64,000 nt of DNA from Escherichia phage vB-EcoP-XT18: the sequence record OR757434.1; one strand, given 5' to 3'. Below the pieces are notes generated by a model. The model ran no database searches, was not told the DNA's origin, and saw nothing but the letters and a program-made list of their open reading frames with translations. Made by a program: the position numbers and the translations under genes. Shown in pieces: positions 3,959-63,650 of the stretch; within the stretch, counting starts at the first letter, position 1; the number at the start of each line of letters is the position of its first letter.

Positions 3959-4159
3959 ATGTGGGCGATTCGTGTTGTTTGGGATCTTGATCAACACACG
4001 AGAAAAGATAGCATCAAATTGTTTGACACTCGCAAAGAGGCTCGTATTGCTAAGAAACAGTTGAAGACTCTGGGCACAATAGTAAAAAGCGCTGATATAC
4101 ATCGCTGGTACGAAGACCCTAACTCGGGTTCTTTTATGTCTAAAGTAATTTATTACTGA
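3959..4159 (+). CDS. small basic protein, paralog family A member 3
   Basis: paralog pattern, ends VIYY. Confidence 0.45.
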   Translation: MWAIRVVWDLDQHTRKDSIKLFDTRKEARIAKKQLKTLGTIVKSADIHRWYEDPNSGSFMSKVIYY

Positions 4160-54273: not shown

Positions 54274-54301
54274 TTGACAACTGGAAAGCCTAACCTATAA
54301 T
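54274..54301 (+). promoter_or_regulatory. strong sigma70-type early promoter (TTGACA-16-TATAAT)
   Basis: consensus -35 at 54274-54279 and -10 at 54296-54301; A/T-rich upstream region. Confidence 0.7.
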
Positions 54302-54726: not shown

Positions 54727-54755
54727 TTGACAGCAAAAACATCATGGTCCATAAT
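54727..54755 (+). promoter_or_regulatory. strong sigma70-type early promoter (TTGACA-17-CATAAT)
   Basis: -35 at 54727-54732 and -10 at 54750-54755; A-rich upstream region. Confidence 0.65.
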
Positions 54756-56601: not shown

Positions 56602-56636
56602 AAGGCGCTATCTTAACGGGTAGCGCCTTTTCTTTT
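56602..56636 (+). terminator. rho-independent terminator
   Basis: 9-bp stem AAGGCGCUA/UAGCGCCUU then UUCUUUUAU. Confidence 0.6.
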
Positions 56637-58014: not shown

Positions 58015-58042
58015 GCCCCGGCTACGGCTGGGGCTTTTTTAT
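58015..58042 (+). terminator. strong rho-independent terminator
   Basis: 8-bp stem GCCCCGGC/GCUGGGGC then UUUUUUA. Confidence 0.7.
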
Positions 58043-58479: not shown

Positions 58480-58678
58480 TCACTAGTGCCAGATTTGACA
58501 AACTAAATTCCTTTATAAACCAACCACTTAGTAAATTTATTGAAAAAGATGGTAGTATTCTGGGACTATGGGTAATGCTCTGTATATAGACCCTTTGAAA
58601 ATTTCTTAGAAAATAAGTTTACTAAATATAACTTACTTAAATAATATTACTTTTAATCTCTGATAAAGGGTAAATAAT

Positions 58679-58975
58679 ATGACTTTAGAAGTATATAAAT
58701 TCCTTTTTGTAAGCTGTTTAACTATCAGCGTTATAGGATTTATTGTTCTCAGAAACAAAGCAGCAAGCTGGGAGAGAATGTATAGATCTCTAGTCCGAGT
58801 GGATGAGATGTATAATGAGAAAGTTAAAGCAACGCTTAATGATCTTATTATGCAAGTAGAGGACAGAAACAAGCGTCTTCAGAATCTCAACCATGAAGTA
58901 TTGCGCCTTGCTCGTGCTAATGAAGACTTGCGAGTAGCTATTGCTAAACAGCAGGAGATTAACAGTGAAAGTTAA
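58679..58975 (+). CDS. membrane-anchored coiled-coil protein
   Basis: N-terminal TMD then heptad-rich segment. Confidence 0.4.
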   Translation: MTLEVYKFLFVSCLTISVIGFIVLRNKAASWERMYRSLVRVDEMYNEKVKATLNDLIMQVEDRNKRLQNLNHEVLRLARANEDLRVAIAKQQEINSES

Positions 58976-59198: not shown

Positions 59199-59445
59199 TC
59201 TTGAATTAAAAGACCCAGACCTTACAGTGGGTGATTTAAAGCTTGGAGATGTGTTCCAAGTTAAAGCTACACGCGTCGATCATTATTTGGTTGTTAGTTT
59301 ATTCACTCCACACGTAACCGAGTCGAACAGGAAAGATTCTGGAACAGTTGTGCTTGGTTTAAGAACTAATCAGGTTATGAAGCTCAATTCAAAACTTCCT
59401 GTAATCCTTATCCCAGATGCAGTAATTACTAATAAAGGTAAGTGA
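59188..59445 (+). CDS. small early protein, paralog family B
   Basis: DLKLGDVFQVK. Confidence 0.45.
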   Translation: MKIDLELKDPDLTVGDLKLGDVFQVKATRVDHYLVVSLFTPHVTESNRKDSGTVVLGLRTNQVMKLNSKLPVILIPDAVITNKGK

Positions 59446-59664
59446 ATGGAAATTAAAGTGGTTGATTATCCTAAATATGCAAATGCAGAAGACGTTAAGG
59501 GTGGTGATGTTTTCTCTTACGATAAACGTTTCTGGCTGATGCTAGAAGATAAAACCCTTGATGGTTTGTGTAAGGCTGCTAACTTGAGCAGTGGTTATGT
59601 TGAAGTCTTCGGTCTATCAACCACTATTATGCCACGTCCTGATCTGTGTTTATCCCAAAAGTAA
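59446..59664 (+). CDS. small early protein, paralog family B
   Basis: DVKGGDVFSYD. Confidence 0.45.
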   Translation: MEIKVVDYPKYANAEDVKGGDVFSYDKRFWLMLEDKTLDGLCKAANLSSGYVEVFGLSTTIMPRPDLCLSQK

Positions 59665-60171
59665 CACCGACTTATAGCCCTTGTGTTTACCAGAGGGCTA
59701 TGTGAGGGTGTTCCTCATTAACTTATTAATTCAGGCATATGCCACACCGCTAGGGAGAGCTTGCTCAAACATCCGGTGCTAGACTAAAACCTGTTAATTT
59801 TCGAAAGACTTTCCGGTATGTAGGGGTACGTATTGGTTTGGGATTCAGGAGACTTCCTAGGGGTAGGGAGTCTTCACCAGTTGGAATAAGAGATAGCTCT
59901 AGAACCTGAACTCTTAGGCAGAGAAGGTCGGCAATGAGTACGCGGTCAGGATTAGTCTACTGACTAGGGCTATCCCTTATATCAACTGGCAATAATGCCT
60001 CCACTAACAAAGAGAGATAGGTATGAAAGTATCAACCAAACGTATGAACCGCCCTGAGCGTATGGATGCAGTAGCTAACGGTGCTCTGAAACTGGAAGGC
60101 TTCTGGGTTCATGCAATGTCGGCTATTCGTAACAAGCAAGGTAATTGGACATATAACAGTTAATAAATAAA

Positions 60172-60200
60172 AGGCTGCCTTCGGGCGGCCTTTGTTGTTT
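60172..60200 (+). terminator. rho-independent terminator
   Basis: AGGCUGCC-UUCG-GGCGGCCU then UUGUUGUUUU. Confidence 0.65.
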
Positions 60201-60245
60201 TAATTAAGGGACAACTCTTACTTAAACTAACAAGAGGAAGCTCAA

Positions 60246-60419
60246 ATGTCTAAGCAAACAATCAAGAATACACAAGCTGGTTACTCTTATGTTAACTCTC
60301 CTTGCTGTGGTGCTCGTGTTAATCTGGTTAAGGAAGAGGTTCGTATCGTTCAGCGTGGCGCTACTGTTGTTCGTTCATGCTGTGTCTGTGGTAATGATAT
60401 TTTTATCAAAGGTAAAGTA
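60246..60419 (+). CDS. small zinc-ribbon protein (57 aa, below the track cutoff)
   Basis: CCGA...CCVCG; RBS present. Confidence 0.35.
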
Positions 60420-61853: not shown

Positions 61854-61928
61854 GTCCCTATAGTTAAAAGGATATAACAGATTTCTTCTAAAAATCCATT
61901 CTAGGTTCGAGTCCTAGTGGGGACGCCA
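61854..61928 (+). tRNA. tRNA-Arg (anticodon UCU) with encoded CCA
   Basis: hand-folded cloverleaf: 7-bp acceptor stem with one G-U, D arm GTTA/TAAC, anticodon stem GATTT/AAATC with loop CTTCTAA, T arm CTAGG-TTCGAGT-CCTAG, discriminator G. Confidence 0.8.
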
Positions 61929-62678: not shown

Positions 62679-63213
62679 GGAGTTTATATGAGCTGTTTTG
62701 GTGGTGGTGAAATAGATGACGATTATGACATGGAATCCAACGGTACATGTCCTGATTGTGGGTGTGAAACATTTGATGGAGTGTCAGTATATCCTGCCTG
62801 TAGTTATTCACCAGTAGTTTGTAAAACATGTGGAGATCAACCTTGTGATCAGTCCTGTTAAGAGGTTTTATGACTGAAGAATTTTTAAAGTGGTTTGGAA
62901 ATACCTTCAAAGAATATCTATTCTCTCCAGAAGACTTTGAAGAGCTGAAAACCTACACTTGGTTGGCTTGGAGAGATAGCCGACGAGAGATGAATAAGTA
63001 ATATCGTGAAGGATTCTTACGAGAGTCCTTTGAGATAGGACTTCAGATCTCCTATCAAACTAACATTCACGTAACTAGCCCATAAGGGCGTTACCCTTTA
63101 ATAACCCAGCCCACTAAGGGGGCGGGAGTTTAGTGCTGGATTTAGCATAACGCTTATTCCTACAAAGGCATCCGATTGTTAGATCTTACATGCAATATTA
63201 ATTAATAGGATAA

Positions 63214-63240
63214 GGGAGGATTCGTCCCCTCCCCCTATTT
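63214..63240 (+). terminator. weak hairpin terminator
   Basis: GGGAGG ... CCUCCC then CUAUUUAU. Confidence 0.3.
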
Positions 63241-63650
63241 ATAAATTATCAGGAGGGTGCATTAGCTGATTAGCTGTAGAAGGGAGGCTGATATCTACAG
63301 CGTGGCCCAGAGTTAGTGTACTCTCCTGATGAGTAGATACCTCATCACGGTAAGCTGTGGAATAATCTTTACAGAAGTTACTTAAAGTAGCCTGTACGGC
63401 CCTCAGCAAAGAGTCCGGACGATATCTGAGTGACTTTAAAAACAGATGGAGCCAGGTGGAATCCCTGGCAATCAATTACAGGTATAGCTTATGAGGCTAA
63501 TTAATGCAGAGCCTATGGTAAAGCAGTCGCCCGTGGTCAAATGACCGTATGCCCATTGGGTGCATCCCTTTGGTGATGGCTAGGGAGTCCGAGCGTAGGT
63601 CCGAACCCTACACCTGTAACCAAATCAAACAATATCTAATTGGAGGATGT

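Follow-up and report, generated by a model that had tools for sequence, protein, structure and literature searches.

Folded intercistronic and leader RNAs are a well-known general kind of element in phage early operons. In T7, early RNase III hairpins on the host-polymerase transcript reportedly serve to cut the polycistronic RNA, leaving protective 3' hairpins, and each gene junction has a single hairpin of roughly 60 nucleotides (nt). In lambda, an RNase III cut in the N leader reportedly relieves N-mediated translational repression, as is said to have been found by Steege et al. 1987, Kameyama et al. 1991 and Wilson et al. 1997, 2002. In PMC5725501 (with its ref. 29), the RNA between nutL and the N ribosome-binding site is described as highly structured, with RNase III modulating N translation, and PMC5371410 (refs 19, 20) has both the lambda N leader and the T7 early RNAs processed by RNase III. 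The RNA described here is of the same general kind, but is itself new and unannotated. It is encoded in a 64,000-nt stretch of DNA from Escherichia phage vB-EcoP-XT18 (sequence record OR757434.1; hereafter the window), where it occupies the non-coding gap 59665-60022 between an upstream open reading frame (ORF), whose stop ends at 59664, and the next ATG-initiated ORF, which runs from 60023.

This gap very probably encodes a conserved, functional structured RNA. The surrounding region (59300-60400) was found to be 100% identical to Escherichia phage vB-EcoP-XT32, a phiEco32-like phage (Kuravirus), and 93-98% identical to phiEco32, SU10, KBNP1711 and other Kuraviruses. In phiEco32 the counterpart of the gap is the unannotated stretch separating phi32_113 and phi32_112, and the phage records examined carry no RNA annotation at this position, apart from occasional ribosome-binding-site calls and short 'hypothetical protein' entries. 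Conservation of the gap exceeds that of either flanking gene. In SU7, ECBP2 and HC25922 it retained 81.5-82% nucleotide identity (excluding an inserted module described below), as against 54-57% for the upstream gene and about 70% for the downstream gene, and in EP335 the corresponding values were 92.5, 92.2 and 73%. Similarly, the leader in Logan contig L094 differs from that of the window at a handful of positions, while the 46-amino-acid (aa) protein encoded directly downstream is 72% identical. It was not the stems alone that were kept; loops and unpaired stretches, such as the UAGGGGUA hairpin tips and the linker segment UAGACUAAAACCUGU, were retained as well. The segment is among the best-conserved stretches of this early region and is thus likely to matter for early gene expression.

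The fold was established from an alignment of 11 phages belonging to three genera (Kuravirus, Nieuwekanaalvirus and Suseptimavirus) together with unclassified relatives, to which 8 metagenomic relatives were then added to give 19 sequences. The depth of covariation is limited, as searches with the flanking proteins (IMG/VR, metagenomes and a 5.8-billion-protein set) returned the same phage group only. For the 11 relatives, RNAalifold predicted seven hairpins (H1 to H7) comprising 76 pairs, 13 of which showed compensatory double changes. In the 19-sequence alignment, 99.1% of the cells in 68 local pairs were paired, compared with 35-46% when the 3' partners were slid by 1-3 columns; this paired fraction is inflated by the derivation of the structure from the same alignment, a circularity that does not affect the double changes seen in H2, H5 and H6. 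Double changes on both sides were observed in 12 of the 68 pairs, and the covariation score (0.212) exceeded that of shuffled alignments (0.126), with none of 500 shuffles reaching the observed value. The alignment also contained 128 G-U cells, and pairing dropped from 99.1% on the + strand to 89.6% when read on the - strand. It was therefore determined that the fold belongs to + strand RNA.

H6, the largest of the hairpins, located on the + strand at 59877..59989, has a 26-layer stem formed by a pair of 26-nt arms, CCAGUUGGAAUAAGAGAUAGCUCUAG and CUAGGGCUAUCCCUUAUAUCAACUGG, and is a candidate RNase III-type hairpin. The stem ends 33 nt before the start codon of the 46-aa gene. With G-U included, 24 of its 26 layers are paired, and its folding z-score was -4.6, with none of 200 shuffles folding as well; relatives that lack the module keep the stem at about 24 layers. 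Double changes were seen in 6 pairs, and while the lower stem (CCAGUU/AACUGG) is invariant, the upper stem occurs in four versions, every one of them still paired. RNase III hairpins are expected to present at least 20 base pairs (bp), or about two turns, of near-continuous double-stranded RNA, as H6 does. They are also expected to lie in the sense orientation on a leader or polycistronic RNA, and the G-U bias, the + strand neighbours and the lack of a promoter motif within the gap place H6 in this position, although its transcription is something that we infer.

Tentatively, and with somewhat less than even confidence, the gap is interpreted as a cis-acting processing or leader element of the rightward (+) early operon, built on an RNase III-type hairpin. 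The gap would be transcribed by read-through from upstream early promoters, and the H6 stem would then serve as the processing hairpin. Cleavage would split off the upstream message, which would keep a structured 3' end (H1-H5), and would free the message of the 46-aa gene with the short hairpin H7 at its 5' end, so that processing would set the stability and translation of both messages.

The tip of H6 differs between phages. A plain loop of 4-5 nt is present in 7 of the first 11 relatives, whereas the window, phiEco32, EcoN5 and EP335 carry an insert of about 60 nt. Among about 97 Gordonclarkvirinae phage records, 60 were found to contain the insert and about 37 a plain hairpin tip. As its presence does not track the clades of the neighbouring 46-aa gene, the tip module appears to move by recombination. 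Together with its closing stem the module spans 59890..59978 on the + strand, and it is modelled as a three-way junction composed of P1 (59892-59902/59964-59974), P2a (59904-59906/59926-59928), P2b (59910-59914/59920-59924) and P3 (59946-59950/59959-59963). P2 and P3 are joined by a near-invariant 17-nt junction strand, CGGCAAUGAGUACGCGG (59929..59945), of which only four point variants were seen: A to G in phiEco32, G to U in phage L, G to A in mg83/mg85 and C to A in EC.W8-1.

The module is not confined to the phiEco32-like phages. A blastn search with the gap returned 27 P22-like Salmonella phages (BTP1, ST104, ST64T, L and others) at 80-84% identity over 55-67 nt, and an exact-pattern scan of IMG/VR for the module core gave 45 loci, of which 44 are lambdoid. 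In lambdoid phages the module lies downstream of nutL boxA/boxB, where these are annotated, and precedes the start of an N-type antiterminator (PF25694, N_peptide) by 21-26 nt; in phage L-type genomes it is instead followed by a 60-aa ORF, itself located before gene 24. Judging from the shared sequence, the module was probably gained by horizontal exchange with P22-like temperate phages. A covariance model (R1) constructed from module copies scored the copy in the window at 96.7 bits and found one copy per genome. No copy was detected in 5,426 complete E. coli genomes, and the plasmid collection yielded only two Salmonella records, both with the P22-like copy. Neither the module of the window nor that of BTP1 matched any Rfam entry at E ≤ 10, hence no riboswitch family, and a literal search of the literature for the invariant core found no paper. 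The 18 matches to the 20-mer core in species-representative genomes were discarded, being near the estimated chance number and having unrelated flanks in unrelated phyla. The prophage small RNA (sRNA) svsR, described in a paper that mentions phiEco32, was likewise considered and is unrelated, being situated at the 3' end of cI.

Across 19 distinct module copies, which align gap-free, the proposed model (P1, P2a/P2b, junction strand and P3) was 97.1% paired, as opposed to 30-52% when slid, and 9 pairs showed double changes. In the P1 closing stem, 7 of the 11 pairs covary through double changes, and one position of P2a was seen as G-C, C-G and U-A. A possible 4-bp contact between the P2 and P3 loops (59916-59919 with 59955-59958) was 97.4% paired and displayed a C-G to A-U switch and G-U to G-C changes; the switch coincides with a single Kuravirus/lambdoid split, and the contact is regarded as suggestive. 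P1 is the only firmly established part of the module fold. The module may serve in the tuning of cleavage, in the binding of a host factor or in some action following excision.

A connection to lambda was provided by the lambdoid leaders. Those bearing the module share the lambda frame, GGCUUUGGGGUG...CACCACCAAAGCUAAC..GGAG..AUG, and both in these leaders and in lambda the 5' strand GGCUUUGGGGUG is paired with the 3' strand CACCACCAAAGCU, after which AAC..GGAG..AUG follows. This shared lower stem is reportedly where RNase III cuts the lambda N leader. Because the lambdoid leaders share the lambda lower stem, the module forms the apical domain of a hairpin whose base, in lambda, is presumably the RNase III site. 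In the Kuravirus, the sequences suggest that the same module was grafted onto a different long stem at the same position relative to the start codon. A separate observation concerns the lambda annotation. ATGGATGCACAA is taken here to be the authentic start of lambda N. In the lambda record (NC_001416, 35037-35438), the RefSeq N coding sequence is annotated from 35438, which is 78 nt upstream of the ATGGATGCACAA start, and if the latter is authentic the annotated coding sequence covers part of the structured leader hairpin.

The remaining hairpins, all on the + strand, were also examined in the 19 sequences. H1 (59664..59711), ACACC...GGUGU around UAUAGCCCUU/AGAGGGCUAUG, comprises 16 pairs and was 100% paired, alignment pair 17-58 occurring as C-G, U-G or U-A. 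The initial annotation, which had been prepared from the DNA letters alone, had noted several inverted repeats in the region, and the example given (TAGCCCT at 59675-59681 and AGGGCTA at 59694-59700) was found to be the core of this larger hairpin. The 8-mer AGGGCTAT occurs in the 3' arms of both H1 (59694-59701) and H6 (59966-59973), and from the sequence the H1 5' arm ATAGCCCT (59674-59681) could pair with either copy, giving a possible alternative long-range fold. H2 (59734..59743; GGC-AUAU-GCC) has a middle pair that changes from G-C to C-G in the SU7 clade (13 versus 6 sequences). H3 (59744..59779) consists of a CACCG...CGGUG stem, closed by U-A, A-U or G-U, and an inner GAGAGC/GCUC hairpin. 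The latter has two clade-specific forms, GAGAGC-UU-GCUC and GAGAC-UUG-UCUC; its invariant GAG/CUC pairs alone entered the 19-sequence count.

Downstream of H3 lies an A/U-rich, mostly unpaired linker, UAGACUAAAACCUGUUAAUUUUCGAAAGACUUU (59780..59812), in which UAGACUAAAACCUGU is invariant in 19 of 19 relatives and which may possibly be a site for a single-strand nuclease or a binding partner. H4 (59813..59836; 9-10 bp) and H5 (59848..59875; 10-12 bp) were each 100% paired and share the tip UAGGGGUA, an 8-mer with no further occurrence in the 64-kb window; TAGGGGTA likewise occurs only twice in the window, both times within this gap. Four pairs of H4 vary on one side, and three pairs of H5 show compensatory double changes (A-U/G-C, G-C/A-U and C-G/U-A). 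H7 (59988..59999; GGCA-AUAA-UGCC) has an invariant stem and a loop reading AUAA, AUCC, AACC or AUAG, and as its first two bases overlap the base of H6, the two pairings are mutually exclusive. RNAalifold additionally predicted a long-range pairing of UCCUC (59712-59716), just after H1, with GAGAGA of the ribosome-binding site; both sides are invariant and hence give no covariation signal. Three further candidate identities for the gap were rejected: a CsrA-type GGA sponge, the AGGA sites not being conserved; a G-quadruplex, the loops being too long and in conflict with the covarying hairpins; and a replication origin, as the G-U asymmetry favours RNA and no repeated iteron-like motif was apparent on reading the sequence.

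The genes around the gap all read in the + direction. From the ORF list and comparison with phiEco32, the upstream early gene (59446..59664) encodes a 72-aa homolog of phi32_113 (PHROG 6570) with no assigned function. Its TAA stop (59662-59664) falls within the conserved block AAGTAAC, which opens H1, and in Bas94/SDYTW1 its place is taken by another gene or by none; in the SU7 clade it is only 54-57% identical. The 46-aa gene (60023..60163), a homolog of phi32_112 (PHROG 13305) without a Pfam match, was located directly 3' of the structured region in every relative examined. It is preceded by a purine-rich ribosome-binding stretch, GAGAGAUAGGU, which together with the ATG occupies 60012..60025 on the + strand. 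Between clades the 46-aa protein is 61-72% identical, with sharp divergence in its C-terminal half, while residues 1-23 are near-invariant except at positions 3, 4 and 18, as is the RNA leader, suggesting mosaic recombination at, or selection across, the boundary between leader and gene.

An intrinsic terminator, AAAGGCUGCC-UUCG-GGCGGCCUUU followed by GUUGUUUU (60170..60193, + strand), is situated directly after the 46-aa gene. It was kept in the 7 relatives where it was found, across genera, with stem sequences that vary, pairing that is retained and GUUGUUUUAA always next; other copies are located at L057:1333-1358, L054:1337-1362 and L001 ~4066-4089, and in phiEco32 the terminator sits after an extra gene, 111. 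No consensus promoter was present in the 50-nt gap that separates it from the following co-oriented genes. As the genes beyond the terminator have no obvious promoter, read-through or antitermination is implied. The structured gap itself was searched for promoters, and neither a sigma70-like site nor the phiEco32 sigma-type TAATGTATA motif was found. Sigma70 consensus promoters on the + strand were observed at 54274-54301 (12/12 matches) and 54727-54755 (11/12), and are likely to be strong early promoters of the phage; downstream of them, + strand intrinsic terminators lie at 56602-56629, 58015-58034 and 60170. An AT-rich intergenic region at 58480-58680 (24-27% G+C) contains a promoter-like site (58618-58645, TTTACT-16-AATAAT) just upstream of the gene block that ends in the structured region, and this is a possible internal promoter for the unit.

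Several points weigh against the processing interpretation. RNase III sites are not recognisable from sequence alone, cleavage of H6 is to be treated as a candidate event, and the region is presumed to be transcribed. The link to a proven RNase III site runs only through the lower stem of the lambdoid leaders; covariance model R1 gave no match in lambda, and single-sequence minimum free energy folds of the module interior disagree between homologs. Furthermore, about 200 nt of additional hairpins are conserved, including the UAGGGGUA loops and the unpaired UAGACUAAAACCUGU, which an RNase III hairpin does not explain. Conserved loops and a conserved linker beyond what RNase III needs therefore point to extra partners or functions.

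Another possibility is that the block, or the H6 stem-loop together with its module, is cut out of the early transcript as a stable trans-acting non-coding RNA (ncRNA) that acts on a host or phage target, for example as a decoy or sponge for a protein or RNA, and does more than punctuate the message. In its favour, loops and single strands are conserved (the twin UAGGGGUA tips, the invariant UAGACUAAAACCUGU and the near-invariant 17-nt junction), the block was kept while the genes on either side were replaced or diverged, and one module is found in two unrelated phage types, one of them without an N protein. The block, however, neither begins with a promoter nor ends in a terminator, and it abuts a ribosome-binding site. 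It shows no similarity to any Rfam sRNA, and no blastn-level match suggesting an antisense target or host mimic was found in E. coli genomes, the complete E. coli genomes being without an H1-H5 match either. This explanation is considered doubtful.

Given the three-helix junction and its 17-nt near-invariant joining strand, a factor- or ligand-sensing leader was also considered, in which the junction would bind a metabolite or host protein in a riboswitch-like manner and alter the next gene (the 46-aa gene here; N in the P22-like phages). Purine riboswitches have a 'tuning fork' layout, which the contact between the second and third loops of the module resembles. In the module this possible 4-bp contact is 97.4% paired with one C-G/A-U switch, and the module always lies in a 5' leader near a start codon. 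Against this, the covariation of the loops stems from a single lineage split, no expression platform is evident, and in the Kuravirus the 26-layer stem of H6 stands between the module and the ribosome-binding site, insulating one from the other. Of the roughly 97 related phage records, about 37 lack the module and have a plain tip, and no Rfam riboswitch was matched. A sensing function is thus thought unlikely.

The conserved strong terminator after the unit, and the co-oriented genes that follow it with no consensus promoter in their 50-nt gap, raised the question of processive antitermination by an RNA like put of HK022. Such an RNA would modify the polymerase transcribing it and let it read through the terminator about 150 nt downstream, and later ones, for the benefit of distal early genes. 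The early region beyond the 54274 and 54727 promoters is broken up by several further + strand terminators, and for the related phage 7-11 an undefined antitermination strategy was considered likely by the authors (PMC8948821), which was counted in favour of this possibility. Nevertheless, the resemblance to put RNAs rests on context only; about 5 kb and two terminators separate the region from the strong early promoters; nothing sets the terminator apart from an ordinary attenuating one; and in the P22-like phages, where nutL and N are present, the module would be redundant for antitermination. The probability of this mechanism is accordingly judged to be small.

A short leader peptide, for which the core would be conserved as coding sequence, is improbable. 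The junction contains a mini-ORF running from ATG 59934 to TGA 59963 (MSTRSGLVY, 9 codons in most copies), with the ATG inside the invariant junction and, in lambdoid copies, GGAGG 9 nt upstream of it. In BTP1-type phages a TGA to TGG change extends the mini-ORF to 24 codons, with an ATGA end at which its stop overlaps the N start (L002 ~2534-2608). Two metagenomic Kuravirus copies, however, carry ATA as the start, most substitutions are non-synonymous (Arg to Leu, Gly to Glu, Val to Ala), the length ranges from 9 to 24 aa, and GGAGG, which reads AGAGA in the Kuravirus, forms one side of the covarying P2b stem. The mini-ORF is probably incidental, although it could couple translation to that of N in the BTP1-type lineage.

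That the gap is a plain intergenic spacer with incidental hairpins is highly improbable. The initial annotation had proposed that the region would count as a simple spacer if there were no Rfam match and no discrete RNA, which is too strict a test as regards Rfam; there is indeed no database match and no known function. An Rfam 15 scan of the whole window at gathering thresholds returned a transfer RNA (tRNA)-Arg only, and permissive cmscan searches at E ≤ 10 (59400-60300 and 59640-60040) gave no relevant match and no group I intron family. The region is nonetheless clearly selected as RNA: it is better conserved than both flanking genes, 12 pairs carry compensatory changes with 99.1% of cells paired, and G-U usage is strand-specific. 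The description of a 357-nt region without an ORF was borne out as regards the gap, but one ORF of at least 30 aa does exist, a 33-aa TTG-initiated frame at 59681-59782. It was rejected as coding, since it starts inside a stem and its frame is broken by 2+2-nt indels in the SU7 clade, and it is therefore not a conserved coding sequence.

The elements that had been likened to the R and S strands of the group I intron P7 helix are present, namely GCTAGACTA (59778-59786, reaching into the linker) and ATTAGTCTAC (59951-59960), but their pairing is at chance level and shows no covariation. They contain an exact 8-nt complement, TAGACTAA/TTAGTCTA, and we estimate that chance alone would give about one such 8-mer pair in a stretch of 357 nt. 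TAGACTAA is invariant, including in phages that lack the partner strand, and in EP335-type phages the change to TTAGCCTC removes 2 of the 8 pairs with no compensation. A group I intron or intron remnant, suspected from this complement in a highly structured region, can be given almost no credence, as no Rfam family whatever was matched at E ≤ 10, the ORFs on either side are unrelated and each complete (upstream stop at 59662-59664; downstream ribosome-binding site of its own and ATG at 60023), the upstream ORF is a different gene in Bas94 and differs in the SU7 clade too, and one R/S partner sits on a module absent from many relatives. The initial annotation had itself found no complete intron core or split gene and had favoured a small RNA or regulatory leader, and this preference agrees with the conserved, structured + strand RNA found directly upstream of the ribosome-binding site.

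A second long non-coding gap in the window (63002-63548, 547 nt, + strand) was also noted. Its first 240 nt or so are conserved among Kuraviruses, and a segment at about 63397-63487 is up to 91% identical to N4-like Gamaleyaviruses, where two records label it tRNA-Thr or 'tRNA-Undet'. The same segment also matches Klebsiella phages, Salmonella 9NA and Shigella DS8, and 63349-63402 matches jumbo phages. ARAGORN and Rfam made no call on 63002-63548, the best Rfam hit being sub-threshold (Clostridiales-2 RNA, E = 0.18). This gap looks like it holds another RNA-like module common to unrelated phages. The tRNA-Arg (anticodon TCT; 61854-61928, Rfam match 61854-61925), which is also annotated in phiEco32, was the only Rfam or ARAGORN match in the 64 kb.

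Both the Kuravirus RNA of about 300 nt and the module lie outside Rfam 15. Isolation of phiEco32-like phages as therapy candidates is widespread, and the segment has gone unannotated in their records save for a few short 'hypothetical protein' calls. The unusual point would be an RNA domain shared horizontally between virulent and temperate phages, as the sequence matches indicate. Through the shared module a virulent coliphage is connected with the N-gene leader of P22-like phages, which suggests that folded RNA domains, and not genes alone, are exchanged between unrelated phages. It also offers a concrete handle on the upper part of the lambdoid N-leader hairpin, which has been little studied. 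There is some chance, though a low one, that the module of about 60 nt is a self-contained functional RNA domain moving between virulent Kuraviruses and temperate P22-like phages, as an aptamer for a metabolite or host factor or as a trans-acting RNA released by RNase III, and that the surrounding 300-nt RNA with its twin UAGGGGUA hairpins is a new host-directed ncRNA and more than a processing signal. Should the processing interpretation be true, the locus would provide a second well-defined case for the RNase III punctuation paradigm of T7 and lambda, and a new RNA family for annotation pipelines.

Of the known systems, the purine riboswitches resemble the module in their three helices, conserved junction and possible pairing of two hairpin loops, and differ in that the module has no Rfam match, no known ligand, no expression platform and a 17-nt joining strand on one side only. 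The put RNAs of HK022 are similar by context only, as folded early-operon phage RNAs that lie upstream of terminators and act without a dedicated phage protein; the adjacent H4 and H5 recall the two-hairpin put layout, whereas the spacing, the position relative to the promoter and the hairpin sequences differ. The early RNase III sites of T7 (R0.3 to R1.3) are likewise hairpins between small early genes of a virulent coliphage. Unlike them, the present locus has one 357-nt junction with seven hairpins whose loops are conserved; it showed no sequence similarity to T7, and its cleavage is predicted. The lambda N leader differs in that its cleavage alone is proven, that the Kuravirus has no N gene and no nut site, boxA/boxB being absent upstream, the next gene being the 46-aa gene without a Pfam match, that the Kuravirus lower stem (CCAGUUGG.../...CAACUGG) is unrelated in sequence, and that the lambda apical domain has no homology to the module detectable with model R1. 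Yet in both systems the 5' leader contains a long, imperfectly paired stem whose end lies a few tens of nt short of a start codon, and the module of the window is 80-84% identical to the apical domain of the P22-like/lambdoid leaders.

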